From assembly GCA_001800745.1 (NCBI GenBank), contig MGVZ01000029.1, positions 9,133-73,132 of the forward strand: a DNA stretch of 64,000 nt. Direction: 5' to 3'. Of this stretch, positions 26,741 through 63,781 are shown one piece after another. The number at the start of each line of letters is the position of its first letter. Position 1 is the stretch's first letter. The notes under the pieces are model-generated. The model saw only the letters and a program-made list of their open reading frames with translations. It was not told the origin of the DNA and did not search any database. This stretch comes from Euryarchaeota archaeon RBG_16_67_27 (GTDB lineage: Archaea; Thermoplasmatota; Thermoplasmata; RBG-16-68-12). Position numbers and translations under genes: made by a program.

Positions 26741-26750
26741 GCGGGCGACC

Positions 26751-28436: not shown

Positions 28437-28527
28437 CCTGCCGCGTAGCGCCGTGCGCTACTAAAGGGTTGTCTGGGCGCCCGACTCCCCGGGCCGCCTC
28501 GGGGCGGGGGCGCAAGGTTTTTGTGAG

Positions 28528-32183: not shown

Positions 32184-32313
32184 CCCTTCGAGAAGGAGGC
32201 GGGCGGCCGTATCCGGCGCGCGGCGTATATGCCTTGCGTCCGCGCGAGTCGTGGTCTCGCGCAAATTCACGGACGAAGCTTTATTCTCGACGGGCGCGTC
32301 CTGCGGTCGAGAG

Positions 32314-32652
32314 ATGCTCGAGGTCCGGTCGCCCGAGGAGTTCCGGGAGCGCGTGCTCGAGTCGGATGCGCCCACGGTCGTCATGTTCTGGGCGACGTGG
32401 TGCCCGTTCTGCCGCCGGTTCAAGGTGGAGTTCGACCGCCTCGCGGAGCGGCTCCGCGCGGAGTTCGCGAGCGTCTACCTGGACGACTACGAGAGCCCGC
32501 TCTGGGAGGACTACGACGTGAGCGTCGTGCCCACCCTCGCCCTCTTCCGTGGCGGCGAGCTCGTCGATCGGGAGGATGGCGTCCTCGGGTACGGGATCGA
32601 CCGCGCCCGGGCCGAGGCGTTCGCCGCCCGCGTGGCCCCGCGCCTCCCGTGA
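32314..32652 (+). CDS. thioredoxin-fold protein (WCPFC active site)
   Basis: MLEVRSPEEFRERVLESDAPTVVMFWATWCPFCRRF. A TATA-like ctttattc lies about 40 bp upstream. Confidence 0.75.
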   Translation: MLEVRSPEEFRERVLESDAPTVVMFWATWCPFCRRFKVEFDRLAERLRAEFASVYLDDYESPLWEDYDVSVVPTLALFRGGELVDREDGVLGYGIDRARAEAFAARVAPRLP

Positions 32653-32718
32653 CGTCTGCTCTCAACCCCGATTTTCAGGTCGCCACGTATTTAATGCGCC
32701 GTCCTCGATGGAAACGCC

Positions 32719-33585: not shown

Positions 33586-34282
33586 GGGCGGCCGGCGGAT
33601 CGGTCGTGCGATGAGCGCGGCGCTCGCCCACGGCGACCCCGACGCGGGGCTCGACCTCGAAGGGCCGAGCCTCGCGAATGCGCGACGCCGACAGGTCTTC
33701 CGCTACCTGTGCATGCGCCCGTGCGCCCGCGTCGGGGAGATCGGACGGGCGCTCGTTCTGTCCCACGCGACGGTCCGGTGGCACGAGCGGAACCTCCTGG
33801 AGACCGGCTACCTCGAGGTCGACGGCGCCCTCGCGTTCCCCTCGGGCCTGATCGACCCCGCGGATGCGGAGCTCTTCCATCTCCTCACGACGCCGGCCCG
33901 CGACGCCGTTCTCCGAGCGTGCGTCGACGACCCGGGCGTTTCGTTCCAGGAGATCGGCGTCCGCGTCGGCCTGACGCGGCAGAGCGCGAGCAAGATCGCC
34001 GCGGAGCTCTCCGACGCAGGCCTCGTCGCCCTCGTCGAGGACGGCCGGTACCGGCGGATGTACCCCTCGGACGCCCTCGAGGCGAAGCGCGAGAGGAACC
34101 GGGCGCGGATCGCCGCGTTCGTCGACCGATTCCTCCGTCGGCTCGCGGACGACGGGCTTTCGCCGGAGCTCCTCCGCCGGGACGAGGCGACGCTCCTCGT
34201 GCGCCTGGGCGCGGGACCGCATTGGGTCGTGTTCGATGTGCCCCTCGACCCGTACCTCACGGGATGGGCCCCTCCCGCGTGA
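33578..34282 (+). CDS. winged-helix transcription regulator (two wHTH-like segments)
   Basis: RRQVFRYLCMRPCARVGEIGRALVLSHATVRWHERNLLETGYLEV and a second repeat VSFQEIGVRVGLTRQSASKIAAELSDAGLV. It is translationally coupled to the KaiC-like gene. Confidence 0.65.
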   Translation: MPEGGRRIGRAMSAALAHGDPDAGLDLEGPSLANARRRQVFRYLCMRPCARVGEIGRALVLSHATVRWHERNLLETGYLEVDGALAFPSGLIDPADAELFHLLTTPARDAVLRACVDDPGVSFQEIGVRVGLTRQSASKIAAELSDAGLVALVEDGRYRRMYPSDALEAKRERNRARIAAFVDRFLRRLADDGLSPELLRRDEATLLVRLGAGPHWVVFDVPLDPYLTGWAPPA

Positions 34283-34321
34283 CCCGGACACGTTAACGGA
34301 TTCGCTAGCCGCCTTGATACG

Positions 34322-34345
34322 CGAGATATAACCCCCTTTAAGTAG
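34322..34345 (+). promoter_or_regulatory. BRE/TATA-like element (gagatataacccccctttaagtag) upstream of the giant surface-protein gene
   Basis: AT-rich motif 25-40 bp upstream of the ATG at 34367. Confidence 0.45.
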
Positions 34346-34366
34346 GGCCCCAACGGCATCTGCGGA

Positions 34367-37300: not shown

Positions 37301-38971
37301 TTCGCGGGTGCTCCCGTGCGGCGGTACATCGGGCCGATCGCGCCGACCGTCCAGAAGGGCGTGGACGCGCTCTACGCCTACTTCGATGCGGACAACGCGA
37401 CTGCCACAGGCCTATGGTCCGATGTCGCCGGAAGGACGTACGGCTTCGACTACGCGATCGCGGTCGTCGGCCGGAACGGGATTGTCGAGTCAAGCGGTCT
37501 CTACGTATTCTCCCCGGGCGTCTCGATCCCCTGGGTCCCGATCGGTCCCGTCTCCGTCGGCCTCGACGCCCGCCGAATCGAGTTCGCCGCGAACGCGAGC
37601 GCCATGAATCTGAGCGCGGGGTATCGCGTCGTGTTCCACGCGGCAAACTGGCGGCTCGGGTACGACGCGGCTCTCCCGGACGCTGCACCAGCCGTCTTCC
37701 CCGTCTCCGCCCGGGCTGCAACCCACCTCCTAATCAACGAGGTGTGGCCCCAGCCCAACCCGGAAGCGTTCGAGATCGTGAATCCGACAGGGGCCGCGGT
37801 GTCCCTCTCCGGGTGGAACCTGGCCGCCAAGCGTGGCAACCTCATTATCGTGATCTACACGTTCACGACGGGGACGATTGGCGCCTGGGGCTCCGGTTCG
37901 GAGTACCTCCGCATTCTCCTGCCGACCAACTCGCTGCCGAACGGCAACCTGAAAATCATGCTCCGGCAGATGACAATCGTGATCGACGAGACGACATACT
38001 CCCAGAGCGTCGCGAACGGCCAGTCGTGGTCGAGGCTCAAGGACCCGATCACCGGTGTGCCGCTGGACACGGACAACGACGCCGCGAACTTCTACATCTC
38101 GCTGTCCCCGACCCCGGGCCGCCCGAACGACAGGCACAGTCCCCTCGTCGCGGTCGCGAAGACGGCGAGCCGGGCCGTCGCCGCGCCGGGCGAGACGATC
38201 ACATACTCCGTGTTCTACAACAACACCGGAACGGGGATGGCGAGCTTCGTGTGGGTGAACGACACTCTCCCCGCGGGCGTCGTGTACGTGTCCTCGAGCG
38301 TCCCCTATGCGACCCTCGCCGGCTCGACGTATGGTTGGCTCTTCACGAACGTGATGCCCGGGACGTCGAACGCCTTCAGCGTCACCGTCCAGGTAACCGC
38401 GGCCGCGAGCGACGGCCAGATTCTCGGGAACACCGTGAGCCTGGACTACTCGGACCAGCTCCGCCAGCCCCTGCCCCGGAGCCAGGCGTGGGCGAACACG
38501 ACCGTCTCCCGACCCGTGATCACGGTCGCCAAGACCGCGAGTCCTTCGACGGCGATCCCGGGGGACATCGTGACCTTCACGATCTACTACAACAACACGG
38601 GCTCCGCGCCCGCGGGGACACTCACGATCAAGGACGTCTTGCCGAGCGGGATGACGTATGTCGGGAGCAGCCCCTCGCCGACCTGGACCGACGGACGAAC
38701 CTTCTACTGGAACATGACCAACGTCGCGCCGGGCAGCCACAGTGTTACCCTGAGCGCACAGGTGGACGCCACGGCGAGCGGGTCGCAGCTCGTGAATTGG
38801 GTGTTCCTGAACTACACGACCACGGGCGGATACGCACTCGCGGGAAGCAGCGCTTCATCGGTCGTCGCGATCCCCGAGCTGTCGGACTTCGTCTTCGTCG
38901 TCGTGGTGCCCTTCCTCGTCCTCGGCCTGCGCAGGCGTTTCAAGGATCGGGAGGCGCGAGAGAGTGGCTGA
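34367..38971 (+). CDS. giant two-TM surface protein: cytoplasmic HhH/Zn-ribbon/TPR/[RL]xNG-repeat N-terminus, extracellular sequon-rich lamin-tail-like and DUF11-like domains, C-terminal TM anchor
   Basis: 1534 aa. Three double Zn-ribbons (CPECG..CPVCG; CSSCG..CGICG; CPHCG..CTICG). TPR-like repeats. About 18 NG-tetrapeptide repeats. TM1 is WARSVVGIAAVVALMVLAPVLASLL. The ~1000-aa ectodomain has more than 30 N-x-S/T sequons, an LTD hallmark (LLINEVWPQPNPEAFEIVNPTGAAVSLSGWNL) and two DUF11-like repeats (..ITYSVFYNNTGTG.. / ..VTFTIYYNNTGSA..). The C-terminal end is PELSDFVFVVVVPFLVLGLRRRFKDRE. Confidence 0.85.
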   Translation: MDESYLEWLDAAAGLGPEKARWIAARFPTFEHLRHATREELASVRGLASADVDRLLELARGGSDRDEGGHLFLCPECGSFAGANAANCPVCGVAFSEEPDAAQAADAIDKFLEEEERPRLLCSSCGAAMASGETRCGICGRAYTKEEAAILPGLDSFVRETAPLCPHCGAYLPDGATDCTICGRAPAAPQEAAGSAHNGHGITRGFLDRWQKVAETADLSPQDRLTEELAYCERLLEADPEIERTWVKKARILEGLGRPREAADALTRAAQLNPSKEVEYRLEVLNLLKAAGDASPVVARWPEQPEATAPPREDARLLDTLHHYEDLLRVDPDLTVAWRTKGEILQRLGRDEEAQRALDRADTVEGRGDRGLRDAAEGLRSHGIEAIPPVGAGRTNGRVNGRVNGRVNGRVNGLAGGRINGLTNGLTNGLTNGAVNGLTLGVGATNGLDGWTDRGGRTNGLVNGNGFTNGRRGRYPAMRVRAQPHWARSVVGIAAVVALMVLAPVLASLLSPTPVPPEGIRIDGRFDDWRALAAYADSPADQTANPDVNLLEMKVAPTADGLLVYARVQGMLFRGAGTNGTDSLHVLIDEDADPTTGYPLGGIGVDVRADVYGWSDAIYGSALKAFNRSQGPTSEDWNRFDVSGTVSAASLGPEVELAIPSLRDPERAKVLVYLADNRGRRDPADGVVRADRPTLAIDEQGVAPEVIVATNALVLRASLTPIGGAPNVTSVDLARLGSSTDPATIVAYADDGDGTFDAGDPALASVSLSGATVSLSVNLSLTAPALLWFEARWTAMTPASTFGLTVQGLGTNGTSDVRSSEPVLAYLAAPPAGLVVDGAFGDWSGRAYGQDLIGDVADPLGAVMYDANVDLLATATDLGANFTGYARVDGRILGGEDIPSLRARYVTSTTIDSDRDSVPDSVEILLPNRDLRFDFNNDNITDNRTSGDVDADGILDYGEPGGTDLWLNTTIPAWYPAPFAGAPVRRYIGPIAPTVQKGVDALYAYFDADNATATGLWSDVAGRTYGFDYAIAVVGRNGIVESSGLYVFSPGVSIPWVPIGPVSVGLDARRIEFAANASAMNLSAGYRVVFHAANWRLGYDAALPDAAPAVFPVSARAATHLLINEVWPQPNPEAFEIVNPTGAAVSLSGWNLAAKRGNLIIVIYTFTTGTIGAWGSGSEYLRILLPTNSLPNGNLKIMLRQMTIVIDETTYSQSVANGQSWSRLKDPITGVPLDTDNDAANFYISLSPTPGRPNDRHSPLVAVAKTASRAVAAPGETITYSVFYNNTGTGMASFVWVNDTLPAGVVYVSSSVPYATLAGSTYGWLFTNVMPGTSNAFSVTVQVTAAASDGQILGNTVSLDYSDQLRQPLPRSQAWANTTVSRPVITVAKTASPSTAIPGDIVTFTIYYNNTGSAPAGTLTIKDVLPSGMTYVGSSPSPTWTDGRTFYWNMTNVAPGSHSVTLSAQVDATASGSQLVNWVFLNYTTTGGYALAGSSASSVVAIPELSDFVFVVVVPFLVLGLRRRFKDREARESG
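35549..35779 (+). repeat. 12-nt periodic tandem DNA repeat encoding (R/L)xNG tetrapeptides
   Basis: acgaacggccgg gtgaacggccgc gtgaacggtcgt gtgaacggtcgt gtgaacgggctc ..., about 19 units. It is in-frame and lies inside the surface-protein gene, just upstream of TM1. Confidence 0.8.
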
Positions 38972-39241
38972 CGGCGTTCCATGGACCGGCGGCCGTTAGA
39001 GCGGCACGGTTCGTCGTCCACCACAAGGATGGACGGCTAGCGTACCTAGGTCGCCGGCCCAAGCCCTCCTCAAAGGAGGGCAGGCTTCCCGCGGGCTCGC
39101 GCACCGCAGTACCGCAGGGAACGTGGGCGGGCTTAACTTCCGGGTTCGGGATGGGACCGGGTGTATCCCCGCCGCTTTGGCCGTCAAACCACTGCTGAGC
39201 GACGGAGAGGGCGCGCTGTATATCAGGGTTTCGTTCCCGCC

Positions 39242-44782: not shown

Positions 44783-45616
44783 GTGACGACGTGGCGGATT
44801 GCGTTCCTCCTCGCGCTCGTTCTCATCCTCGCAGGGCTCGCCGTCACACTCGTCGCGAACACGGGGTCCACGATCCTACTGGCGACGACGACGAGCGCGC
44901 GCGATTCGGGTCTCCTTGACGTCCTCCTCCCGGAGTTCTCCCGAGATGCCGGGATCGGTGTGCGGTTCGTCGCCGTGGGCACGGGCCTCGCCCTCGATAC
45001 GGCACGGCGCGGGGACGCGGACGTCGTACTTGTCCACGCTCCGGCCGCCGAGCTCGAGTTCATGTCCGACCACGGCCTCTGCCGGAGCCGCGTGATGCGG
45101 AACCAGTACATCGTCGTGGGACCCGCGACGGACCCGGCGGGGATTCGCGGCCTCACGAACGCGACGGTCGCCTTCACGAGGATTCTGTCGGCCCGGGCGA
45201 CGTTCATCTCCCGCGGGGACAACTCAGGGACTCACAGTATGGAGAAGACGATCTGGTCGTGGGTCGGGTATCAGCCGAGGGCCGCCACGGATCCATGGTA
45301 TCGCGAGGCGGGGCAGGGGATGGGCGCTACCCTCGAGATCGCGTCGCAGCTCGGCGGGTACACGCTCACGGACGACGGCACCTTCCTCGTGCGGCGGCCG
45401 AGCCTCTCCCTGGAGATCGACGTGACGAACGACCCGCCCCTTCAGAACGTGTACAGCGTAATCCCCGTGAGCCCCGCGCGTCATCCCGGCGTGAACGCGC
45501 CCGGGGCGCTCGCCTTTGCGAAGTGGATCGTGGGCGCCCGCGGCCAGGGAATTATCGGCAACTACACGGTCGGGAGCGAACGGCCGTTCCATCCCGAGGG
45601 CCTCGACGGGTGCTGA
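44783..45616 (+). CDS. tupA: tungstate/molybdate ABC transporter substrate-binding protein
   Basis: N-terminal TM/signal segment. An ATTTSARDSGLLDVL motif (the TTTS oxyanion-binding signature of TupA/WtpA-type PBPs). It is followed by a cognate permease and ATPase. Confidence 0.75.
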   Translation: MTTWRIAFLLALVLILAGLAVTLVANTGSTILLATTTSARDSGLLDVLLPEFSRDAGIGVRFVAVGTGLALDTARRGDADVVLVHAPAAELEFMSDHGLCRSRVMRNQYIVVGPATDPAGIRGLTNATVAFTRILSARATFISRGDNSGTHSMEKTIWSWVGYQPRAATDPWYREAGQGMGATLEIASQLGGYTLTDDGTFLVRRPSLSLEIDVTNDPPLQNVYSVIPVSPARHPGVNAPGALAFAKWIVGARGQGIIGNYTVGSERPFHPEGLDGC

Positions 45617-45617
45617 C

Positions 45618-46268
45618 TTGGCGCTCGACGCGGAGCTGCTCCAGATCGTGGGCCTTTCGTTCCTCGTCGCAGGCACGTCCACGCTCATCGGCTCCGTGAT
45701 CGGGATCCCGCTCGGCGCGATGATCGCCCTGAAAGAGTTCCGGGGACGCGACTTCGTCCGAACGCTCGCGTTCACCTTCTACGGATTCCCGCCCGTCCTC
45801 GCGGGGCTCCTCGTGTTCCTCCTCCTCTCGAAGGAGGGGCCGCTCGGCTCCCTCGAGTGGCTCTTCACCCCGATCGGCATGGTCGTCGCCCAGGTTCTCA
45901 TCGTCACGCCGATCGTCACGGGGATCACCGCGTCGGCGGTGATGAGCGTCGAGAAACGGCTCCACGAGACCGCGCTCGCGCTCGGCGCGGACGGACGGCA
46001 GTGGCGTGCGACCGCGCTCCACGAGGCCCGGGTCGGGCTTCTGACCGCGGTCATGCTCGGGTTCGGCCGGGCGATCTCCGAGGTCGGGGCGGTCCTCATC
46101 GTCGGCGGCAACATCCGGGGCTACACGCGCGTGCTGACGACCGCGATCGTCCTGGAGACCTCCCAAGCGCACTACGTCGAGGCGACGGTCTTCGGCGTCG
46201 TCCTCTTCGCAGTGTCGTTCGTCGTGTTCGCGGTCCTCCAGCGAGTGCAGGGGAGGGCCTTCCTGTGA
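45618..46268 (+). CDS. tupB: tungstate ABC transporter permease
   Basis: TTG start 1 bp after the tupA stop. Five to six TM helices. ABC-permease EAA-like loop (LGADGRQWRATALHEARVGLLTAVMLGFGRAISEVGA). Confidence 0.8.
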   Translation: MALDAELLQIVGLSFLVAGTSTLIGSVIGIPLGAMIALKEFRGRDFVRTLAFTFYGFPPVLAGLLVFLLLSKEGPLGSLEWLFTPIGMVVAQVLIVTPIVTGITASAVMSVEKRLHETALALGADGRQWRATALHEARVGLLTAVMLGFGRAISEVGAVLIVGGNIRGYTRVLTTAIVLETSQAHYVEATVFGVVLFAVSFVVFAVLQRVQGRAFL

Positions 46269-46999
46269 CCGCGCCGATCGTGATTGAGGCGGTCGAGAAG
46301 GCCTTCGGCGAGAAGGCCGTGCTCCGGGGCGTGAGCGCGGAGATCCAGCGGGGAGAGATTTTCGGCATCCTCGGCCCGAGCGGCGCGGGAAAGACGACCG
46401 TGCTCCGTCTCGTCGACCTCCTCCTCGCCCCGGACGCGGGGCGCATCCTTTTCCATGGGACCGCGCTCGACCCGCGCTCCCCGGAGGCCCTTGCCCAGCG
46501 GCGGCGGATGGCGATGATCATGCAGAATCCCGCCACGTTCCGTGCCTCCGTCTTCGAGAACGTCGCGTTCGGGCTGTGGCTCCGCGGCGCGGACGCAGCG
46601 GAGGTCCGGGCGAGGGTGTTCCAGGCGCTCGAGTTCGTCGGTCTCCTCGGCGCCGCGCGCGAGCGTGCGGACCGCCTGAGTGGCGGGGAGCAGCAGCGGA
46701 TTGCGTTCGCACGCGCGGCCGTCCTTCGGCCGGAGGTCCTCCTCCTTGACGAGTTCACCGCGAACCTCGATCCGGCGAACGTCCGGGCCCTCGAGGAGGC
46801 CACCCTGCGTTACCGAAGGGAGACGGGATGCACCGTGGTAATCGTGACGCACAACCTGTTCCAGGCGAAGCGGCTCGCGGATCGCGCGGCCCTCCTCCTT
46901 GACGGCCGTCTCGTCGAGGTCGCGCCCGCGAAGGACATCTTTGAGAACCCTCAGAGGGCGGAGACGCGGGCGTTCCTGACGGGGGAAATGGCGTACTGA
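46265..46999 (+). CDS. tupC: tungstate ABC transporter ATP-binding protein
   Basis: GTG start overlapping the tupB stop (GTGA). Walker A GPSGAGKTT, signature LSGGEQQRIAFARA, Walker B LLLDEFTANLD. Confidence 0.85.
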   Translation: MTAPIVIEAVEKAFGEKAVLRGVSAEIQRGEIFGILGPSGAGKTTVLRLVDLLLAPDAGRILFHGTALDPRSPEALAQRRRMAMIMQNPATFRASVFENVAFGLWLRGADAAEVRARVFQALEFVGLLGAARERADRLSGGEQQRIAFARAAVLRPEVLLLDEFTANLDPANVRALEEATLRYRRETGCTVVIVTHNLFQAKRLADRAALLLDGRLVEVAPAKDIFENPQRAETRAFLTGEMAY

Positions 47000-47797: not shown

Positions 47798-47872
47798 CAC
47801 GGCCAGCTGCGTGACATGCCAGGTGGGACAAGCCAGGCCGCCGAAGGGGGGACGCCCTTGAGGTTCAACGTG

Positions 47873-48109
47873 ATGGAGCATCAGCTCGTACCAGAGCACC
47901 GCCTCGTTTCCGAGGAAGAGGCGGAGCGGATCTTGAAGGCCCTGCGGATTACCCGAGACCAGCTGCCGAAGATCCGGCGGAGCGACCCGGTGATCCAGCT
48001 CCTCGAGCGGATCGAGGGCCCGATTGATGAGGGCCGGATCATCCGAGTCACCCGCGTGAGCAGCACCGCGGGCGTGTCCGAAGCGTACCGCCTCGTCATC
48101 GGGAGGTAG
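47873..48109 (+). CDS. rpoH: DNA-directed RNA polymerase subunit H (Rpb5 homologue)
   Basis: MEHQLVPEHRLVSEEEAERILKALRITRDQLPKIRRSDPVIQ... The start may instead be the TTG at 47858 (MRFNVMEHQ). Confidence 0.85.
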   Translation: MEHQLVPEHRLVSEEEAERILKALRITRDQLPKIRRSDPVIQLLERIEGPIDEGRIIRVTRVSSTAGVSEAYRLVIGR

Positions 48110-48112: not shown

Positions 48113-51100
48113 ATGCGCGAGCTCATCGACGCGTTCTTTCGCGAGCGATCGATCGTGAACCACCACACCGCCTCGTTCAATGACTTCCTTCCCACGATCG
48201 ACAACCCGAACTCGCGGATGCAGCGGATCGTGGACAACCACCGGTCCTCGCCCGAGGACGAACGCCGGGGGATCATCAAGCTCGACGAGGACCGCACGGA
48301 AGGCGACATCATCGAGATCCGGATCGGGCGGAAGCGGGACGAGCGCGGGCGGATCGACATCGAGGCGAAGCCGACGATCGCCCTCGGCCTCCCCGTCGTC
48401 AAGGAGGCGAACGGCGCCACCCACGCGCTCTCGCCCATGGAAGCCCGCCTCCGGAATCTGAACTACACCGCGCCGATTTACCTCGACTTCACGGTCATCG
48501 AGAACGGCATCGAACGGGAGCCGGAGCGCGTCCACATCGGGAACCTCCCGATCATGACGAAGTCGAAGAAGTGCCTTCTGTACAAGGAGAACCTGGAGAC
48601 GGAGGGCGAGCTCACCCTCGACGAGTATCGCCGGAAGCTCATCGAGAAGGGCGAGGACCCGTGCGACCCGGGCGGGTACTATATCATCGGCGGCACGGAA
48701 CGCACGCTCATCTCCCTCGAGGACCTCGCGCCGAACCGCGTCCTCGTGGAGTTCAACGAGCGCTACGGGAGGAAGGTCGAGGTCGCGAAGGTCTTCTCCC
48801 AGAAGGAGGGGTACCGCGCCCTCACTCTGATGGAGAAGAAGAAGGACGGTCAGCTCATCGTATCCGTGCCGACGGCATCCGGCCAGATCCCGTTGATCAT
48901 CCTCATGAAGGCACTGGGGATGGAGAAGGACTCCGAGATCCACGACGCGGTCGTGTCCCACCCCGCGATGGCGAACATCGTCTACGCGAACATCGAGGAA
49001 GTGAAGAACAAGAAGCTGTACCCGCCGAACGGCATCCTCACGCGGGACGACGCGATCAACTACCTGGAGAAGAAGTTCGCGACGGGCCAGGCGAAGGAGT
49101 ACCGGACGAAGAAGGTCGAGTCGATCCTCGACCGGTCTCTCCTCCCCCACCTCGGCGACGCCCGTGAAGACCGGATCAAGAAGGCGATCTTCCTCGGCCG
49201 CGTCGCGCGCACGGTCCTCGAGCTCTCCCTCGGGAAGCGCCGCGAGGACGACAAGGACCACTACGCGAACAAGCGCCTCAAGCTCGCGGGGGACCTCATG
49301 GAGGACCTCTTCCGGGTCGCGTTCGCGAACCTGATCAAGGACCTCAAGTACCAGCTCGAGCGGTCGTACGCTCGGCGGCGCGAACTGAAGATCGCGTCCG
49401 CAATCCGGCCGGACCTCCTCACGCAGCGCCTCCTCCACGCCCTGGCGACGGGGAACTGGGTCGGCGGACGGGCGGGCGTCAGCCAGCTTCTCGACCGGAC
49501 CTCGAACATGTCCACCCTGAGCCACCTGCGACGGGTGACGAGCCCCCTCACGCGGTCCCAGCCGCATTTCGAGGCGCGCGACCTGCACCCGACGCAGTGG
49601 GGCCGGCTCTGCCCCAACGAGACGCCGGAAGGCCAGAACTGCGGCCTGGTGAAGAACTGCGCTCTCGTCATCGACGTGTCCGAAGGCTTCCCCGACGACG
49701 AGGTGAAGATCCTCCTCGCGGACCTGGGCACGAAGCAGGTGAAAGGTCAGCAGACGACGTACACGCGGGTGTACGTGAACGGCGACCTCGTCGGGCTCCA
49801 CGAGGACCCGCACATGCTCGTCGCCGAGATCCGGGAGCGGCGGCGGAGCGGCCTACTCAGCCATGAGGTCAACGTCCGGTACGACGAGAACATGGGGGAG
49901 ATCATCATCAACTGCGACGAGGGCCGCATCCGCAGGCCCCTCCTCGTCGCGAAGGAGGGCCACCTCTCCCTGACGAAGAAGCACCTCGAGGACCTTCGTC
50001 TCGGGCGCACCCGCTTCTCCGACCTGATCCGGAACGGCGTTGTCGAGTGGATCGACGCGGAGGAGGAAGAGGACACGTACATCGCGATCTACCCCTACGA
50101 CGTCCCGAGCCGCTGCAAGGAGTGCAAGCGTCCCCTGAGCCGGAACGACGTGTCGTGGGTGAACATGGGCGCGAAGGAGGACGAGATCGAGCTCGAGTGC
50201 CAGGAGTGCCACAAGTCGTTCCGCGTGAAGCCGCATGTCTCCCGAGAGACGACGCATCTCGAGGTCGACCCGATGGTCATCCTCGGCGTCGCCTCGGGCC
50301 TCGTCCCGTACCCCGAGCACAACTCGTCCCCTCGCGTCACGATGGGCGCGGGGATGGCGAAACAGTCCCTCGGCCTCGGGGCGAGCAACTACCGCGCCCG
50401 CCCGGACACGCGGAGCCATCTCCTCCACTACCCGCAGAAGCCGCTCGTCCAGACGGACTCGATGCCGTATGTGTCGTTCAACGAGAGGCCCGCGGGACAG
50501 AACTTCGTCGTCGGCGTGATGTCCTACCATGGCTACAACATGGAGGACGCGATCGTGATGAACAAGGCGTCGATCGAGCGTGGCCTCGGCCGGTCCTCGT
50601 TCATGCGGACGTACCGGGCGGAGGAGCGGCGATACCCCGGCGGCCAGGAGGACCACTTCGAGATCCCTTCGCCCGACGTGCGAGGCGCTCGGGCCGACCT
50701 GAGCTATGCGAGCCTCACCCCGGACGATGGTCTGATCTCCCCGGAGGTCCTGGTCACGGGGGGTGAGGTGCTGATCGGGAAGACGAGCCCTCCGCGGTTC
50801 CTGGAGGAGGAGACGGACTTCCTCACGCCCCAGAAGCGTCGGGAGACGTCGATCACGGTCCGCCACGGCGAGAGCGGATGGGTCGACTCCGTCATGCTCA
50901 CGGAGAGCGAGAACGGGTCGAAGCTCGCGAAGGTCAAGGTCCGGGACCTCCGCGTCCCGGAGCTCGGGGACAAGTTCGCCTCCCGCCACGGGCAGAAGGG
51001 CGTAATCGGGCTGATCGCGTCCCAAGAGGACATGCCGTTCACGGGCCAGGGCATCATCCCCGACCTGATCATCAACCCCCACGCGATCCCATCGCGCATG

Positions 51101-51702
51101 ACCGTCGCGCACGTCCTCGAACAGATCGGCGGCAAGGTCGCCTCGTTCGAGGGCCGGGACATCGACGGGACCCCGTTCAGCGGCGAGCGCGAGGAGTCCC
51201 TCCGGAAGGCGCTCGAGGAGGCCGGCTTCCGGTCGAACGGAAAGGAGATCCTGTACGACGGGAAGACGGGGCGGATGATTCCCGCGGAGATCTTCATCGG
51301 CGTGATCTACTACCAGAAGCTCCACCACATGGTCTCCGGGAAGCTCCACGTGCGGAGCCGCGGACCCGTGCAGATCCTCACGCGTCAGCCGACGGAGGGG
51401 CGCTCCCGCCAGGGCGGCCTCCGGTTCGGTGAGATGGAGCGAGACTGCCTGATCGGCCACGGCGCGGCCATGGTGATCAAGGACCGCCTGCTCGACGAGT
51501 CGGACGGGACGATCCAGTACGTCTGCGGGAACCCCGACTGCGGCCACTTCGCGATCAAGGACCGGAAAGGGAACCTTCGCTGCCCTGTGTGCGAGAACAC
51601 GTCGAAGATCTACCCGGTGCAAACGTCGTACGCGTTCAAGCTCCTCCTTGACGAGCTCCTGTCCCTCGGCGTCGCCATGCGCCTGCAGCTGGAGGACCTC
51701 AA

Positions 51703-51706
<4 letters not shown>
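48113..51706 (+). CDS. rpoB: DNA-directed RNA polymerase subunit B (unsplit)
   Basis: 1197 aa. It carries all Rpb2 conserved regions in a single ORF and ends with a [11 protein letters not shown] zinc ribbon. Confidence 0.97.
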
Positions 51707-56323
<4,617 letters not shown>

Positions 56324-56331: not shown

Positions 56332-56757
56332 ATGGTCGAGGTCACCTTCGACGAACGCACGATGACGTTCGTTGCACTCTTCCAAGACGTTACCCGCACG
56401 ACCGTCGTGGACTGCGTGGACGCTGTGGATCGCCTGATCTTCGTTGTGAAGGAAGGCGACATCGGCAAGGCGATCGGCAAGAAAGGCGAGCACGTCGCGA
56501 AGCTGAAGCGAATCATGAACAAGGATATCCATGTCGTCGAATACGCCGACGCCCCCGAGAAGTTCGTCGCAAACGTATTCCGGAACTACGACGTGAAGGG
56601 CGTGCATATCGAGCAGCGGGGCGACGTGACCCATGCGACGGTGACCGTCGACGCGAAGAAGAAGGGCCGGGCGATCGGCAAGGAGGGGCGGAACCTCCGC
56701 GTGTCGCGCGACCTCATCGCCCGACACCATCCAATCCAGAGCGTCAGCGTCGCGTGA
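56332..56757 (+). CDS. nusA: archaeal NusA homologue (tandem KH domains)
   Basis: MVEVTFDERTMTFVALFQDVTRTTVVDCV...KEGDIGKAIGKKGEHVAKL...GRAIGKEGRNLRVS. Both KH GxxG loops are present. Confidence 0.9.
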   Translation: MVEVTFDERTMTFVALFQDVTRTTVVDCVDAVDRLIFVVKEGDIGKAIGKKGEHVAKLKRIMNKDIHVVEYADAPEKFVANVFRNYDVKGVHIEQRGDVTHATVTVDAKKKGRAIGKEGRNLRVSRDLIARHHPIQSVSVA

Positions 56758-56837
56758 CTTTCGGGAGGGTCGAGTCGCGCGGCACCGCGACGGTCGAGGC
56801 CGTCACTGGGCCGCCGGCGGGGATGCGTCATCCGCAA

Positions 56838-56848
56838 GCGTTAATATC
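56838..56848 (+). promoter_or_regulatory. TATA-like box (gcgttaatatc) upstream of the SNF2 ATPase gene
   Basis: The only AT-rich element in the 144-bp nusA/SNF2 spacer, about 55 bp before the ATG at 56902. Confidence 0.35.
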
Positions 56849-56901
56849 GCCGCGGGCCATCGACGGCCGCCCGCGCCTGCGGGCGAAGGGACCCCCGTTC
56901 G

Positions 56902-58668
56902 ATGAGCGTCCTCCCCCCGGAGGCGACTCCTTCCGCAGACGCCTCCTTGCAGCTCGAGTTCTCCGAGCAAGACCGCGGGATCCTCGATCTCTTCGGCCGA
57001 GGTCCCCCGGACGGATCGCGCGCCTGGCGCCTCAACGGTCTCGCGCATCGCCTCAGCCTTGTTCAGGGATTCGACACGCTCCTCGGATGGCCGGTTCTGC
57101 GAGGCGTCGCGAGATACCCTCACCAGGAAAAGGCGGTCCTCCGGGTCCTGCGGGACATGGGAGGACGCGCGGTCCTGGCGGATGAGGTCGGGCTGGGGAA
57201 GACGATCGAGGCCGGCCTCGTCCTCAAGGAGTACGCGGTCCGGGGGCTTATCCACCGCGGCCTGATCCTCACCCCCCCGGGCCTCCGGTCGCAGTGGCGG
57301 GAGGAGATGAAGGAGAAATTCGGGCTCCCGTTCGAGCTCCTTCGAGGCACCGAGGACTGGGCGCGCCATCCGTTCCTCATCGCGTCTCTCGACACAGCGA
57401 AACGCGAGCCTCACGCATCCGCGGCCCGCGGGGTTCCCTGGGACATCGTCGTCGTGGACGAGGCCCACCGGCTCAAGAACCGCGAGAGCCGGAACTCGAA
57501 GTTCGTCGCGAGCCTCCACCGGCGACGCATGCTCCTCCTCACCGCGACGCCGGTTCAGAACGATCTGGCCGAGCTGTTCAACCTCGTCAGCCTGCTCAAA
57601 CCGGGTCAGCTGCACACGTTCACGGAGTTCGTCTCGCGCTACGTCGCGAGTTCTGACGGGCGCGTCCCCGCCCGCGTCCCGGAGCTTCGCAGCCGGCTCA
57701 AGGACGTCATGGTCCGGAATCGGCGAGGGATCTCGTTCGAACTCCCGCCGCGAAGGGTCCACTCCCTCGCCGTTCGCCTCACGCCGGAGGAACGTCGCCT
57801 CTACGACGGCGTCACTGCGTTCGTGCGGGAAGCGTACGGCACCCCCGTCCACCGCCTGCCATTTGCCGCGAAGCTCACCCTGATCGTTCTTCAGAGGGAG
57901 ATCGGGAGCAGCACGTTCGCGGCGGCCCGGACCCTCGCGAAGCTCCGCGAGAGTTCTCTCTTCGGTCCCGAGCATCGGGACCGGTTGGCGGCTCTTCACG
58001 ACGAAGCCTGCGCGATCCGCGCGAACGTGAAAGCGGGCCACCTGAGGCGGTTCCTCGCGTCCACGGACGAGAAGGTCCTCGTGTTCACGCAGTACCTTCG
58101 GACGCTGGAGTACCTCCGCGGCGTCCTCGAGTCCGACGGCATCTCCGTCTCGATCTACCATGGCGGCCTCTCGCCCGCTGCGAAGGAGGACGCGGTGCGC
58201 GCGTTCCGGGGCGACCGCCGTTGTTTCCTGAGCACGGAGGCCGGCGGCGAAGGCCGGAACCTGCAGTTCGCTCGGACCCTCGTGAACTACGACCTTCCCT
58301 GGAACCCCCTGCGAATCGAGCAGCGAATCGGCCGTGTCCATCGGCTCGGCCAGGAGCGGGAGGTCCACGTCGTGAACCTCTGGGCGGTGGACACCGTGGA
58401 GGAGTATCTCATCGAACTCCTGGACCGGAAGATCCACATGTTCGAGCTCGTTGTCGGCGAGCTCGACCTCATCCTCGGAGACCTTGAAGGCCGCAAATCT
58501 TTCGAGGAGCTGCTCATGGACATCTGGGTCCTCAAGGAGACGGAGGCGCGCCGGGAGGCCCTCCGACGGCTCGGCGACGCCCTCGTCCGTGCCCGCGCCG
58601 GATACGAGGACCTCAAGGATCGGAACGATGAGATCCTCCGGACGATGAGCGAGGAGGTCGCCGCGTGA
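56902..58668 (+). CDS. SWI2/SNF2-family ATPase (RapA/HepA-like core helicase, no large accessory domains)
   Basis: Motif I LADEVGLGKTIEA, motif II VVVDEAHRLKN, motif III LLLTATPVQN, and helicase-C motifs (..LSTEAGGEGRNLQ.., ..QRIGRVHRLGQ..). 588 aa. Confidence 0.88.
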   Translation: MSVLPPEATPSADASLQLEFSEQDRGILDLFGRGPPDGSRAWRLNGLAHRLSLVQGFDTLLGWPVLRGVARYPHQEKAVLRVLRDMGGRAVLADEVGLGKTIEAGLVLKEYAVRGLIHRGLILTPPGLRSQWREEMKEKFGLPFELLRGTEDWARHPFLIASLDTAKREPHASAARGVPWDIVVVDEAHRLKNRESRNSKFVASLHRRRMLLLTATPVQNDLAELFNLVSLLKPGQLHTFTEFVSRYVASSDGRVPARVPELRSRLKDVMVRNRRGISFELPPRRVHSLAVRLTPEERRLYDGVTAFVREAYGTPVHRLPFAAKLTLIVLQREIGSSTFAAARTLAKLRESSLFGPEHRDRLAALHDEACAIRANVKAGHLRRFLASTDEKVLVFTQYLRTLEYLRGVLESDGISVSIYHGGLSPAAKEDAVRAFRGDRRCFLSTEAGGEGRNLQFARTLVNYDLPWNPLRIEQRIGRVHRLGQEREVHVVNLWAVDTVEEYLIELLDRKIHMFELVVGELDLILGDLEGRKSFEELLMDIWVLKETEARREALRRLGDALVRARAGYEDLKDRNDEILRTMSEEVAA

Positions 58669-59786
58669 GCGACGCCGACCCGGTCCGAGGCTTCGTCGCG
58701 GAGGTGCTCTCGGACCTCGGGGCGGATCTCTCCGAGCACGACGGCATCCTCTGGGTCACCGCGGCGGAGGGCCTCCAGCGGGCACTCGAGGTCCCCAGGC
58801 ACGTGGCCCTCGCCTTCGACCCGGTCGCGGCGGACGCAAGCCGTGCGGAGCTCGTCGCGCCGGGGAGCTTCTTGCTCGAGCGGATCCTCGCCCTCGCGAC
58901 CGCACGCGGGCGATGGGACGTCGGGCGGGTTGCGGTCGCCTCCCCCGCATGGGCGAGAGATGCGCTGAGTGGCGCGGGGCTACCCCGAGCCTGGGTCGAG
59001 CGTGCGTCCGTCGAAGACCTCGGCGAGGAGCCCTTCGTCTGCTTCACGTTCCGCGTCACCCTGACCTCGGACGCCAAGCGAGAGACGTACCACGCGATCC
59101 TCGTGTCCCGACAGGATGCGTGGGAGGTCCTCCCGGAGGAGGCCGAGGTCCCGCTGGTCCCCGTCACGATCCCTCCGTCGCTTGTCGACCTCCACGCCGG
59201 ATACGACCTCGCGCGGCGGTTTCTCTCGGCTCGGCTCCTTGAGTCCCTCGAGGCGTTCCGGCGGGAGTCGATCGCAGCGCTCGACGAGGAAGTCCGTCGG
59301 ATCTTCGCCTACTTCGATGGGACGGTCCGGGAGATCCGAGCGGCGTCTGCGGAGGTTGCGCGAGAACTGATCGCGGCGGTCGAGGGGGAGAGGGATCGCC
59401 GGCTCGCAGAGGCCCTGGAACGGTTCGAGCCCCACGCCACGGCGGCGCTCTGCGGCGTCCGCGTCGTCCTCGCTCCCCGGGCGGTCGCTCGGTCCGGCAC
59501 CACCGCGGATCCCGCCGTGGTCGAGATCGACGCGTTCGCGAGACGGGCTCGCGGCCTCCGCTGTTCCCGATGTGGGAACGTCGACGGCCCATGGTCCGCC
59601 GACTCCCTCGGACGGATCACCTGCGCGGGCTGCACACCTACGGGAGCCGCATCCGCTCGACCTCGAGGCCATCCGCGGTCGGGTATTCCTCGACGACGTA
59701 CGAAGGCCGGCCGAGCCTCGGTGCGATCTCCTCGAGGATCCAAGGAGCGATCTCGATTCGACGGCGCGACCCGTCGAGGCGCATGA
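58665..59786 (+). CDS. hypothetical protein with C-terminal zinc ribbon, translationally coupled to the SNF2 ATPase
   Basis: The GTG start overlaps the SNF2 stop (GTGA). It contains ..CSRCGNVDGPWSADSLGRITCAGC.. The last ~50 aa (Arg/Pro-rich) overlap the convergent radical-SAM gene and may be read-through. Confidence 0.55.
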   Translation: MSDADPVRGFVAEVLSDLGADLSEHDGILWVTAAEGLQRALEVPRHVALAFDPVAADASRAELVAPGSFLLERILALATARGRWDVGRVAVASPAWARDALSGAGLPRAWVERASVEDLGEEPFVCFTFRVTLTSDAKRETYHAILVSRQDAWEVLPEEAEVPLVPVTIPPSLVDLHAGYDLARRFLSARLLESLEAFRRESIAALDEEVRRIFAYFDGTVREIRAASAEVARELIAAVEGERDRRLAEALERFEPHATAALCGVRVVLAPRAVARSGTTADPAVVEIDAFARRARGLRCSRCGNVDGPWSADSLGRITCAGCTPTGAASARPRGHPRSGIPRRRTKAGRASVRSPRGSKERSRFDGATRRGA

Positions 59787-60708
59787 GGTCCGTCGGCACC
59801 CGGTGCCGGCGCGCGAGCTCCCGCAGGAGGGCGTCGAGACCCTCTCCCTCGATCACGCCCTTCACGAGGGTTCCGTCTTCCGTCACGACGTCCCACTTCC
59901 CCGCGACACTCTCCGCTCGCCTCTTGATCCGGGTCCGGAGTTGCCATCCGTCCTTGTAGCCGCTCGTGCAGTAGTGGACCGTGATCCTCCAGGGCCGCCC
60001 GAGGAGGCGGAGGGCGGCCGCGTCGGCGCCCCGGACGCCGTACGACAGGTCGTGCTTGGTCGCGTAGCCGCGGACCTTCATCCGTGCGAAGTTCGCGTCG
60101 GAGAACTCCATCTCGTCCAGGTTCACGAACGCGAGCCCCTCGGCCTCCGCCCACTCGATCAGCCTCCGAAGGTCCTCCTCCCGCTCTGGGATCAGTGGGA
60201 CCTCGAGGCCCACGGTCATCCCCAGGGACTTCGCGAGGCGCGCGGTCGCCTCGAACCCCGTCCCCGCGACCCGGGACCAGAGGCCCGGGGGCACGTGCAG
60301 CCGGAGTTCGTCGAGGCCCGCGGTCGCGAGCCGGCGGATGCTCTCGGGGTCCGTGGACATCGTGTACAGGTGAGTGTGGAACTCCTCACCGAACTCCGAC
60401 TTCAGGAGGCGGATGTAGTGGCAAGTCCGGTCGAGCGCCTCGACGGGATCGCCACCCGTGATCCCCGCGCCTTTCGCGCGGATCGCCCGGGCCTCCTCGA
60501 GGACGTCCTCGTCTCGTTCGACCCTCTTCTCATCCGCGAACACGACGTCCCGGTACATCTTCTCGTCGGACACGGGGCAGTAGAAGCAATGGAACGAGCA
60601 GAGGCCCGTCACGAACAGGACCATCTTCGCCCCCTCCGTGCACTGCGCGCAGCCCACGGGGAGGCGTCCCTGGATCCGGGAGCCGTACGGGCGGTCCGCG
60701 GGCGTCAC
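59638..60708 (-). CDS. radical SAM protein (PflA-related, COG2108-like)
   Basis: GLCSFHCFYCPVSDE supplies the CxxxCxxC cluster. A glycine-rich SAM motif (AGITGGDP) follows. 356 aa. Confidence 0.78.
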   Translation of the reverse strand: MTPADRPYGSRIQGRLPVGCAQCTEGAKMVLFVTGLCSFHCFYCPVSDEKMYRDVVFADEKRVERDEDVLEEARAIRAKGAGITGGDPVEALDRTCHYIRLLKSEFGEEFHTHLYTMSTDPESIRRLATAGLDELRLHVPPGLWSRVAGTGFEATARLAKSLGMTVGLEVPLIPEREEDLRRLIEWAEAEGLAFVNLDEMEFSDANFARMKVRGYATKHDLSYGVRGADAAALRLLGRPWRITVHYCTSGYKDGWQLRTRIKRRAESVAGKWDVVTEDGTLVKGVIEGEGLDALLRELARRHRVPTDLMRLDGSRRRIEIAPWILEEIAPRLGRPSYVVEEYPTADGLEVERMRLP

Positions 60709-61202: not shown

Positions 61203-62924
61203 TTGGCGATGATCCTCACGACGCGGGCGATCGCCCTCGTCTTGTCCCTGGCATTCGCATCGGGCGGAGCGGCTCTGAGCCTCGTTTCCCTGACGACGCC
61301 CGCGGACGGCGTCGGCTCCGACCGGGGCCTCGACACGAATGGAAACGGTGCGTTCGACTGGCTCGTCCTCGAGGCGAGCGTGGACCTTCCCACGACGGAC
61401 TACTGGAACGTCCAGGCGATGCTCTCCTCGACGAGCCCGCCCAAGGGCGGCGTCTGCGGCCAGGCCGTGCCCCCACCCGTCCCGATCCTGGAGACGGGGC
61501 TGCCGTACGGCTCGCTCCTTCCTCCGGAGTACCCGATCGCTTGGGCGGGCGAGCGGTACTTCTTCCTCGCGGGTGCGCAGACCGTCCGGATCGCGTTCCG
61601 GGGCACGGACATCTTCCGCGCGGGCATCGACGGGCCGTACCTCGTGCGTGCGACCCTCATCGGCGGCGATGGGATCGTGTACGGCCGCGCGGACGGCTTC
61701 GCCCCCGTCCCGTGGCCCGGCCCGCCTGTCATGACGTGGAACTACACGACCCAGGCGTACGCGGCCGCGGACTTCGAAGAGCCGTTCCGGCCCGCATACT
61801 TCACGGGAGCCCACGACGACCTCGGGATCCACGTCGACGAGGACGGGGCCTACGACCTGTTCGAGCTCCGAGCCGCCGTCCACGTGAACACCGCCGGGAT
61901 CTACTATCTCAACGGGATGCTCCTGCCGCGGGCCTCGGACCCCAACCGCTACGCGACGGTCGCGTACGGCTACCGGGATCTCACCCTCGAGGCCGGGGAG
62001 ACGAACGTGGCCCTGCGCTTCCGCGGGGACCAGATCCGCGCCGCCGGCGTCGACGGCCCTTGGGCCTTCTCCCTCGTCCTGACCGGGCCGAACATCTACA
62101 CGTGGGACGGCGGGAACATGACGCCGCAGCCCGCGTTGCCCGGCACGGCTCCGTACGCGGGCATCCTGCCGCCGACGTACCCGGAGGTCCTGTGCGGGGA
62201 GACGTCCGCGTACAGCGCCGTCGCGTTCGACGACACGATCGAGCTCGCCCGGTACACGGGCGTCTTCGCGGAGGCAACGGTCGACTGGGATGGGGATGGG
62301 CTCCATGACCTCCTCGTCGTCCGCGCGGAGGTCGATGTGTTCCTCGCGTCCGCGTTCGAGATCCGAGGGGCCCTTCGCGTCTCCGATCGGTCCATGGACA
62401 TCGCCACGAGCTGGGGCCAGGTCCAGTGGCCCGAAGGGACCGCGTGGGCGGAGTTCGCGTTCGCGGGCCCGGACATCCGCGCGAGCGGCGTCGAGGGTCC
62501 GTACGAGGCCTTCCTGTCGATCATCCCCCTCGTGTGGGGGATCGACCCCTCGACGACGTACGTGACCCGCGCGTACAAGGCGACGGACTTCGACGACCGT
62601 GCGGACGGGAACCGGAGCTACTGGATCGACTCGCTCTCCGCGAGCGTGGACCCCTCGCGAGTCCTCGGCGTCCGCGTCGTCGTCGTCCGGGGGAACGACA
62701 TGCTGACCGTCGTGTACGAGGACACGCTCACGATCGAGCTCAGCGACCCTGCGGGGGTGCTCGTCGGGAGTGTAGTGGACCGCGTCGTGCTCACGAGCGG
62801 CGGCTCCTCCTGGTCGATGTCCGCCACGTTTGGCGTCTTGGGCTCGGGCACGTACACGGTGACAGCGATTCTCGGACCGCCGTCCGCCCCCGTCGACGTG
62901 CGGTCGACGGTCGTCACGGTCTGA
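61203..62924 (+). CDS. secreted protein with signal peptide and three ~120-aa internal repeats
   Basis: Signal/TM segment MAMILTTRAIALVLSLAFASGGAA. Three repeated modules (..FDWLVLEASVDL..IAFRGTDIFRAGIDGPYLV..; ..YDLFELRAAVHV..LRFRGDQIRAAGVDGPWAF..; ..HDLLVVRAEVDV..FAFAGPDIRASGVEGPYEAF..). Confidence 0.7.
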   Translation: MAMILTTRAIALVLSLAFASGGAALSLVSLTTPADGVGSDRGLDTNGNGAFDWLVLEASVDLPTTDYWNVQAMLSSTSPPKGGVCGQAVPPPVPILETGLPYGSLLPPEYPIAWAGERYFFLAGAQTVRIAFRGTDIFRAGIDGPYLVRATLIGGDGIVYGRADGFAPVPWPGPPVMTWNYTTQAYAAADFEEPFRPAYFTGAHDDLGIHVDEDGAYDLFELRAAVHVNTAGIYYLNGMLLPRASDPNRYATVAYGYRDLTLEAGETNVALRFRGDQIRAAGVDGPWAFSLVLTGPNIYTWDGGNMTPQPALPGTAPYAGILPPTYPEVLCGETSAYSAVAFDDTIELARYTGVFAEATVDWDGDGLHDLLVVRAEVDVFLASAFEIRGALRVSDRSMDIATSWGQVQWPEGTAWAEFAFAGPDIRASGVEGPYEAFLSIIPLVWGIDPSTTYVTRAYKATDFDDRADGNRSYWIDSLSASVDPSRVLGVRVVVVRGNDMLTVVYEDTLTIELSDPAGVLVGSVVDRVVLTSGGSSWSMSATFGVLGSGTYTVTAILGPPSAPVDVRSTVVTV

Positions 62925-62968
62925 GCCGCGGGCGCAAGCCTAAACCGTCCGGGAACCGTGCGGAGACC

Positions 62969-63781
62969 GTGGCGGATTCCGATCCCCGGCAGGTCCTTGC
63001 CCAGCTCGGCGTTCGGGCGAGGAAGGGTCTCGGCCAGCACTTCCTCGTCGACACGCGGGTCGCGGAGCGTCAGCTCGCGTACGCCCGGCTCACACCGTCG
63101 GACGTCGTCCTCGAGATCGGCCCGGGTCTCGGCGTCCTAACGCGCCGGCTCGCGGAGCGCGCGAAGCGCGTCATCGCCATCGAGGCGGACCGGCGCCTCG
63201 CAGAGTACCTGCGCGGCGCGGTCCCGGACGCGGAGATCGTCCTCGCGGACGCCCTCCGGGTCGACTGGCCCGCGTTCGACGTGATGGTCTCGAACCTCCC
63301 CTACGGGATCTCCTCACCCGTGACGTTCAAGCTGCTCGATGAGCCGTTCGACCGAGCCGTCCTCATGTACCAGTGGGAGTTCGCGAAGCGGATGGTCGCG
63401 AAGCCGGGCACGTCGGACTACTCCCGTCTCAGTGTCGGCGTGTACCGTCGAGCCGCGTGCGACATCCTCGAGCGGGTGCCGCGGAACGCGTTCCGGCCTC
63501 AGCCCCGAGTGGACTCCGCCCTCGTCCGGCTGGCCCCTCGCCCATCTCCGTTCCCCGTGTCCGACCCGCGACTGTACGACGCGCTCGTCGACGCCCTGTT
63601 CGGGCACCGGCGGAAGACCGTGGAGAACGGCCTTCGGCTCTCCTGGCGGTCGTTCGCCCCTTCGGAGGCGGCCCTCGAGGCGCTCCTCCCGAGGCTCCCG
63701 TATCGAGGTCGCCGGGTCGAGGAGCTCCGGCCCGAGGACCTCTCCCTCCTTGCCGACGCGATTGCCGGGCCGAAAGGTTAA
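62969..63781 (+). CDS. ksgA: 16S rRNA (adenine1518/1519-N6)-dimethyltransferase KsgA/Dim1
   Basis: GTG start. GLGQHFLVD, SAM motif VLEIGPGLGVLT, NLPYGISSP. The 451-aa track ORF overlaps the upstream gene and is over-extended. Confidence 0.85.
   Translation: MADSDPRQVLAQLGVRARKGLGQHFLVDTRVAERQLAYARLTPSDVVLEIGPGLGVLTRRLAERAKRVIAIEADRRLAEYLRGAVPDAEIVLADALRVDWPAFDVMVSNLPYGISSPVTFKLLDEPFDRAVLMYQWEFAKRMVAKPGTSDYSRLSVGVYRRAACDILERVPRNAFRPQPRVDSALVRLAPRPSPFPVSDPRLYDALVDALFGHRRKTVENGLRLSWRSFAPSEAALEALLPRLPYRGRRVEELRPEDLSLLADAIAGPKG

Follow-up and report, generated by a model that had tools for sequence, protein, structure and literature searches.

A Swi2/Snf2 gene pair of the YqhH/YqhG type behind the RNA polymerase operon of a Thermoplasmata archaeon resembles a RapA enzyme cut in two

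The 64-kb stretch of DNA analysed here (the window) originates from Euryarchaeota archaeon RBG_16_67_27 (contig MGVZ01000029.1, assembly GCA_001800745.1) and carries, behind an RNA polymerase (RNAP) operon, a gene for a compact Swi2/Snf2 ATPase (the SNF2 gene) followed by a gene for a partner protein with a zinc ribbon. Judged from sequence comparisons and structure models, the two genes together encode an enzyme of the RapA type that is cut in two, lacks the Tudor-like N-terminal domain and carries an additional zinc ribbon. The pair is assigned to the two-gene module YqhH/YqhG, in which a compact SNF2 protein orthologous to YqhH of Bacillales precedes the partner. In the Thermoplasmata lineage this unit is inherited stably in its place behind the RNAP operon and behaves like a housekeeping gene pair; it has a predicted promoter of its own and a structured leader. 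Whether the pair acts on RNAP in the way RapA does is, in our estimate, an even bet.

The first protein (56902-58668, + strand, ATG start) has 588 amino acid residues and is classified as a compact Swi2/Snf2 ATPase of the YqhH type, equivalent to the ATPase core of RapA (domains 1A/1B/2A/2B). Both lobes exceed the Pfam cut-offs (SNF2-rel_dom PF00176, 105.8 bits, E 2.8e-30; Helicase_C PF00271, 82.9 bits, E 2.4e-23), and the translation contains DEVGLGKT (motif I), DEAH (II), TATP (III), STEAGGEGRNLQ (V) and QRIGRVHRLGQ (VI). With both lobes present and motifs I-VI intact, the protein is a Swi2/Snf2 enzyme, as a preliminary description of this DNA had stated on the basis of a 588-aa open reading frame (ORF) with intact helicase motifs and a DEAH box. 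Its closest solved relative by sequence is RapA of Escherichia coli: residues 66-515 align with RapA 147-633 at 31% identity (BLASTP, E 3e-42). The second closest is the Rad54-like core SSO1653 of Sulfolobus solfataricus (E 2.6e-36), and on the ATPase core alone many eukaryotic remodellers score almost as high as RapA. The RapA equivalog model NF003426 of NCBIfam gave 190.3 bits against a cut-off of 576, in two stretches confined to the core. The tandem Tudor-like N-domain of RapA (residues 1-107) has no counterpart, the alignment starting at RapA 147 with about 65 residues preceding the SNF2 core.

The second protein (58665-59786, + strand, GTG start) comprises 373 residues. Its AlphaFold2 model (predicted local distance difference test score, pLDDT, 88.8) consists of an alpha/beta domain at the N-terminus, a beta-sheet into which two long helices are inserted, and a zinc ribbon. 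Pfam gave no match at all for this protein and phmmer none in the PDB. Foldseek of the model against the PDB returned four significant matches, all to E. coli RapA (E 2e-8 to 4e-7, about 295 columns), and nothing else under E 0.05. A profile of 91 distant family members (A3) ranked RapA first among 177,635 PDB sequences in hmmsearch (E 1.2e-5) and aligned with RapA 711-923 in hhalign (87.5%, E 3.6e-6). The YqhG-like core of the partner (residues 1-326; 58665-59642, + strand) is thereby identified as a homologue of the Spacer and C-terminal domain (CTD) region of RapA: the alpha/beta Spacer and the C-terminal domain with its beta-sheet and long helices, which follow the core within RapA, were found in trans on the partner. 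The preliminary description had viewed the zinc-ribbon protein as a possible adaptor; the Foldseek, hhalign and hmmsearch results identify it as a homologue of the Spacer and C-terminal region instead.

Since the first protein matches the RapA core and the second the RapA Spacer/CTD, the pair rebuilds an N-terminally truncated RapA. A model of the concatenated SNF2 and partner sequences is in line with this. Its five best matches were RapA entries (E 1e-29 to 2e-20, about 900 columns), headed by an N-terminally truncated RapA, whereas chromatin and other remodellers matched over about 500 columns only, corresponding to the core. This model is of low confidence (pLDDT 71 in the SNF2 part; predicted template modelling score, pTM, 0.37) and served for the collinear match only, not for domain packing.

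The same comparison bears on another possible function, namely that the pair is a nucleoid or chromatin remodeller or acts on some other DNA-bound machine, its proximity to RNAP genes being inherited gene order. Swi2/Snf2 enzymes generally act on protein-DNA complexes, the eukaryotic remodellers come near RapA on the core alone, and the synteny described below is confined to one shallow clade. The fold of the partner, however, has no counterpart among remodellers, RapA being its sole significant match, and we regard this function as very improbable.

The partner belongs to a large family that includes the Pfam family YqhG and is no orphan. Its 113 close homologues (40-52% identity) are neither named nor annotated with Pfam domains; one distant homologue was found in addition. 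A profile built from the partner homologues matched 1128 cluster representatives (50% identity clusters) at E<=1e-3 and 498 at E<=1e-10, most members being about 350 aa long. PF11079 (YqhG) was matched by 9 of the 91 distant members, in one case above the gathering score of 25 bits, a threshold that the window partner itself does not reach. The clade profile found the protein P0134 at E 1.3e-31, and P0134 passes PF11079 at 36 bits. The bona fide YqhG of Brevibacillus (PF11079, 248 bits) adjoins an SNF2 gene and gcvT-gcvPA-gcvPB, and was aligned by the A3 profile with 98.9% probability (E 2.7e-17). The window SNF2 protein shares 42% identity with the Brevibacillus YqhH orthologue (E 3e-139) and 46% with another Firmicute copy, and in every locus with readable sequence there an SNF2 gene lies directly upstream of the partner gene. 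Within the partner, the clade-conserved stretch F.FR..L.SDEKRE contains S-D-(E/A)-K-R-E at residues 135-140 (window 59067-59084). The wide-family consensus shows SDE..E at this place, and RapA does not conserve the motif.

The yqhH and yqhG genes of B. subtilis are neighbours upstream of sinI-sinR (PMC6123443), and published work refers to Bacillus YqhH as HepA/RapA (PMC7385302). No paper equating YqhG with the C-terminal half of RapA was found in an incomplete literature search. What has been reported for YqhH raises the possibility that the pair is a general translocase for DNA damage or replication-transcription conflicts and not an RNAP-bound recycling factor. Knockout of yqhH makes B. thuringiensis sensitive to UV, and its product shows ATPase and unwinding activity (PMC10054049). 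In B. subtilis, deletion of hepA (yqhH) has mild phenotypes with methyl methanesulfonate and PcrA depletion, survival on this agent being lowered when PcrA is depleted (PMC7385302). The second-best solved relative, the Rad54-like core SSO1653, and a pair of PD-(D/E)XK nuclease and UvrD-type helicase genes adjoining the module on two haloarchaeal plasmids would fit as well. Yet both proteins show a specific, collinear likeness to RapA and to no repair helicase, neither the window nor the clade shows repair genes beside the pair, and the reported phenotypes would also follow from stalled RNAP that is not cleared. We therefore consider a repair function of this kind unlikely. The SNF2 protein recovered with RNAP subunits in a pull-down of PcrA from B. 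subtilis was YwqA, not YqhH (PMC3797733).

The gene order in the window is rpoH-rpoB-rpoA'-rpoA''-rpl30e-nusA, SNF2 gene, partner gene, and 144 nt separate nusA from the SNF2 gene; the pair does sit right behind the RNAP/nusA operon, as initially described. The window has a GC content of 64-71% and stems from an uncultured soil/sediment Thermoplasmata lineage, whose nearest genomes are metagenome-assembled genomes labelled Thermoplasmata, Methanobacteriota or 'Euryarchaeota archaeon RBG_16_68_13'. Among 28 soil/sediment Thermoplasmata assemblies, all of the about 24 loci with enough upstream sequence have rpoA''-rpl30e before the pair and a radical SAM gene after it. Even the divergent locus L038, with an SNF2 protein 56% and a partner 29% identical to those of the window, keeps this arrangement. 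Within the clade, identity to the window amounts to 69-77% for SNF2 (69-78% in another comparison), 62-76% for L30e, 72-84% for the radical SAM protein and 42-50% for the partner; the degree of conservation of SNF2 is close to that of its housekeeping neighbours. A comparison of synteny had been proposed as a check on the preliminary description, and its outcome is divided: the pair lies behind the RNAP operon in all Thermoplasmata relatives with enough flank, and at unrelated loci in all other lineages examined.

Upstream of the SNF2 gene, an AT-rich island in DNA of about 67% GC contains a B recognition element (BRE)/TATA-like box (CAAGCG-TTAATAT; 56835-56847, + strand), about 55-65 nt 5' of the ATG. 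Its core AA..TTA is invariant in 27 loci, with or without an MFS gene upstream, and the box is likely the promoter of the two-gene unit. It is followed by a leader hairpin of 7 bp (CGCCCGC-GCCT-GCGGGCG; 56868-56885, + strand). In the alignment of the 27 loci 99.5% of cells are paired, compared with 24-61% in slid controls. Two pairs show compensatory changes and one pair is G-U in 20 of the 27 loci, which fits a stem in the sense-strand RNA. Rfam holds no family for this leader, the only match being a chance one to xerDC (E 0.5). In most loci the 3' arm of the hairpin carries AGGTGA, which is Shine-Dalgarno-like. Just 5' of the ATG lies the invariant box GAAGGGAYCCCC (56885-56896, + strand). 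Each of the 27 loci has it a single time, the window holds no second copy, and the box may belong to the ribosome-binding region. A scan for sigma-70 promoters and intrinsic terminators, with a bacterial model ill-suited to archaea, gave nothing relevant.

Outside the Thermoplasmata clade the pair was found in varied surroundings: beside LysM and SASP genes in a spore-former, beside POR and TPR genes at another locus, and beside response-regulator and KaiC-like genes in a probable planctomycete. On both cyanobacterial mobilizable plasmids (L048 and L054, from Nostoc and Oscillatoria) it adjoins parA/parB or mobC/relaxase genes. All four haloarchaeal plasmids examined (L049, L050, L052 and L053) carry it beside genes for a DUF1156 methylase and DUF499/AAA ATPases, with an HNH gene on one and the nuclease-helicase pair mentioned above on two. 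The haloarchaeal loci represent the DUF499-centred, BREX-related (Hma) systems of PMC12839542, and they suggest that in some such systems the helicase is a split one from the YqhH/YqhG-type family. The RapA architecture is in fact common to BrxHII of BREX type 3 and the helicases of such DUF499-centred systems (PMC12839542).

The window pair could hence be a defence-derived or mobile module, that is, a split helicase of the BrxHII/Hma type that landed behind nusA and is now an orphan or part of an unrecognised system. Beyond the shared architecture and the plasmid neighbours, including the par or mob genes on the cyanobacterial plasmids, the ranking of PADLOC models for SNF2 would agree with this, with BrxHI|BrxHII (255 bits), DrmD (232) and HmaA (198) at the top. 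A bona fide housekeeping YqhH of Bacillales, however, reaches equal or higher PADLOC scores, so that these matches reflect the SNF2 core only, and the ranking was rejected as evidence for defence. The curated models all remained far below their cut-offs (DrmD 235 of 610 bits, DpdE 201 of 500, ZorD 66 of 1500; one more score in this comparison was 233 against 950), and the partner matched no PADLOC model. The ORFs scanned around the pair comprise the RNAP genes, the radical SAM gene, a DUF4785-like ORF and an ORF with an rRNA adenine dimethylase (RrnaAD) domain (62426-63781), the sole methyltransferase near the pair. Companion genes of the methylase, BrxC/DUF499, PglZ or nuclease type were not detected by Pfam among the scanned ORFs from 47.5 kb to the window end. 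Membership in DISARM, BREX, Dpd or Zorya was rejected on these grounds, i.e. scores far under cut-off and companion genes (DrmA/B/C and a methylase, the dpd cluster, ZorA-C, or a BrxC or DUF499 ATPase with an N6-methyltransferase) absent from the scanned ORFs. The position of the pair, moreover, is fixed in all relatives with readable flanks and its SNF2 protein evolves slowly. In a rough neighbour-joining tree without support values, the clade is placed beside a chromosomal copy from a Firmicute and away from the clade of haloarchaeal plasmid copies, and no copies occurred in 50,697 phage records. A defence origin of the window pair is accordingly quite unlikely in our view. Of the preliminary description, the remark that no methyltransferase or nuclease is adjacent proved right, the RrnaAD ORF being the only one nearby. 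The idea of an inserted defence-type module finds its DUF1156 and DUF499 companions on the four haloarchaeal plasmids and none at the window locus. The suggested likeness to SWIM-zinc-finger/SNF2 pairs was rejected: the partner has neither a SWIM domain (CxCxnCxH) nor any Pfam match, and its ribbon is of the form CxxC-19-CxxC.

In the mechanism that we propose, the first protein would be the ATPase and double-stranded DNA translocase core, and the second would supply in trans the parts that follow the core in RapA, namely the alpha/beta Spacer and the C-terminal beta-sheet domain with two long helices, to which the zinc ribbon is added. The two proteins would form a heterodimer docking on RNAP or on DNA-stalled RNAP, and ATP-driven translocation on duplex DNA would dislodge or recycle the polymerase as RapA does. 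Loss of the N-terminal domain could be compatible with such a role: a RapA without it retains both binding to RNAP and activation by RNAP, and the Spacer makes contact with the zinc-binding domain of beta' (PMC8501970). This alpha/beta Spacer has an inactive restriction-endonuclease-like fold (PMC12839542).

Several points weigh against an action on RNAP. RapA contacts elements specific to bacteria, namely the beta flap-tip helix and the alpha subunit, and archaeal RNAP differs at these sites. No experiment ties any YqhH/YqhG pair to RNAP, work with E. coli being what is cited for such a link (PMC7385302). The clade-only profile A2 was not significant against either bona fide YqhG or RapA, so that the link needs the wider family, and the concatenated model is of the low confidence given above (pTM 0.37). 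The top PADLOC and NCBIfam scores belong to BrxH and DrmD and not to RapA, although all are far below cut-off. Since BrxHII and the helicases of the DUF499 systems share the RapA architecture (PMC12839542), homology alone cannot prove RNAP recycling. The pair also accompanies DUF1156 and DUF499/AAA genes on 4/4 haloarchaeal plasmids. As for location, the clade with RNAP adjacency is shallow (RpoA' 87-95% identical), an MFS gene separates nusA from the SNF2 gene in most relatives, and the pair has its separate, conserved promoter-like box and leader. Together with the unrelated loci elsewhere, these features do not support the original argument that co-location with RNAP/NusA suggests an RNAP factor. 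What stands of the earlier proposal of a RapA-analogous factor is the relationship itself, with RapA as the closest solved relative of SNF2 and the partner as a homologue of its Spacer/CTD. The farther-reaching claim, that the pair is a true two-subunit RapA working on RNAP and thus the first recycling or release factor of the RapA type for an archaeal, Pol II-like polymerase, is tentative and to us rather doubtful.

The two genes of the unit are probably translated in a coupled manner. At the junction gccgcGTGAgcg, the GTG of the partner gene (58665-58667) overlaps the TGA of the SNF2 gene (58666-58668) as GTGA, and a Shine-Dalgarno-like GAGGAGG lies within the SNF2 gene (58651-58657, + strand), 8 nt upstream of this GTG. 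The sequence of the junction bears out the GTGA overlap of the 588-aa and 373-aa ORFs noted before. An (A/G)TGA overlap is kept in the Thermoplasmata clade, occurs also at loci L009 and L045 and on the haloarchaeal plasmids, and is frequent across loci.

The zinc ribbon, CxxC-(19)-CxxC, is read from the sequence at residues 300-323 of the partner (59562-59633, + strand). C300 and C303 are invariant and C323 is at least 90% conserved across the 91 distant family members; about half of the close relatives have lost the ribbon by deletion, namely the 352-aa and 315-aa classes of the clade. The protein had been described as ending in this ribbon. The ribbon is present but not terminal, as an Arg/Ser/Pro-rich tail of 50 aa follows (59643-59786, + strand). 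Here the partner ORF overlaps a convergent radical SAM gene with a C-terminal DUF8061 domain (59638-60708, - strand) by 149 nt (59638-59786). The conserved reading in the overlap is the C-terminus of the radical SAM protein (…EEYPTADGLEVER…), of which the partner tail is the antisense. In L007 and L015 the partner ends earlier, with an overlap of 44 nt, and the tail is absent from some relatives; it is probably dispensable read-through.

In the operon upstream, rpoH (about 47870-48109) was confirmed by its own sequence, and Pfam confirmed rpoB (48113-51706; unsplit, 1197 aa), rpoA' (51703-54492), rpoA'' (54495-56051; 518 aa, intein-free), rpl30e (56048-56323) and nusA (56333-56757). An intein in rpoA'' (Intein_splicing and LAGLIDADG) occurs in L003 (2733-5870, 1045 aa) and L038 (4024-7080, 1018 aa). 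The MFS or sugar-transporter gene lies at 6736-8160 in L003, 6670-8082 in L005 and 1656-3086 in L007, among others, and is absent from the window, L001, L015 and L038. Downstream, the radical SAM/DUF8061 gene is the constant neighbour across the whole clade including L038, and the genes beyond it vary. Signatures of rps12 and EF-2 were found nowhere in the 64-kb window. Upstream of rpoH, at 44783-46999, an ORF for a phosphate-type periplasmic binding protein (PBP_like_2) and one for an ABC-transporter ATPase are ordinary neighbours. Several very long ORFs (860-1541 aa) on both strands fill the region of about 23000-39000, and some of them may be spurious given the high GC content.

If the proposed role holds, the YqhG family, with more than 1100 clusters and listed as of unknown function in Pfam, would receive a structure-based role as the missing C-terminal half of RapA, which would also explain the constant association of compact SNF2 genes of the YqhH type with this partner. 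The archaeal pair would then be a candidate factor for the release of stalled or post-termination polymerase, and polymerase recycling driven by Swi2/Snf2 enzymes would not be confined to bacteria. To our knowledge, the archaeal factors known for such release are Eta and FttA/aCPSF1, and neither belongs to the Swi2/Snf2 enzymes. The module occurs in housekeeping, plasmid-backbone and defence contexts, and annotation from the SNF2 core alone, be it as DrmD, BrxH or RapA, is for this reason unsafe. As a gene pair, yqhH-yqhG is known and uncharacterised, and RapA/BrxHII is a known kind of Swi2/Snf2 enzyme; what sets the window pair apart is that it is divided into two proteins, has lost the Tudor domain, carries a zinc ribbon and holds a stable seat behind an archaeal RNAP operon.

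Among the known systems, SSO1653 (SsoRad54) resembles the window pair as an archaeal Swi2/Snf2 ATPase, with a likeness restricted to the core. SSO1653, a single protein, is longer and has an N-terminal extension, and no relation of its regions to the partner was found. The helicases of the BrxHII/Hma type share with the pair the Swi2/Snf2 core, the alpha/beta domain of an inactive restriction-endonuclease-like fold and an alpha+beta domain at the C-terminus that includes two long helices (PMC12839542). In contrast to the pair, each of them is one chain of about 940 aa; a Tudor domain is usual and a nuclease frequent, and ATPase and methylase companions are always present, whereas no such companions occur among the scanned ORFs at the window locus. 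The Bacillus pair yqhH (hepA)-yqhG has the same two-gene layout, in which a compact SNF2 protein of about 570-590 aa precedes a YqhG-like one. It differs in that the window partner has a zinc ribbon and a helical insert of other length, and in that the Bacillus pair lies next to gcvT whereas the window pair is archaeal and lies behind the RNAP operon. Finally, E. coli RapA (HepA) agrees with the pair in a core that is 31% identical, in the homology of the partner with its Spacer/CTD (about 710-923) and in the collinear order of these parts. Unlike RapA, the window pair consists of two polypeptides without the Tudor-like N-domain, carries an extra C-terminal zinc ribbon and belongs to a host with an archaeal RNAP.

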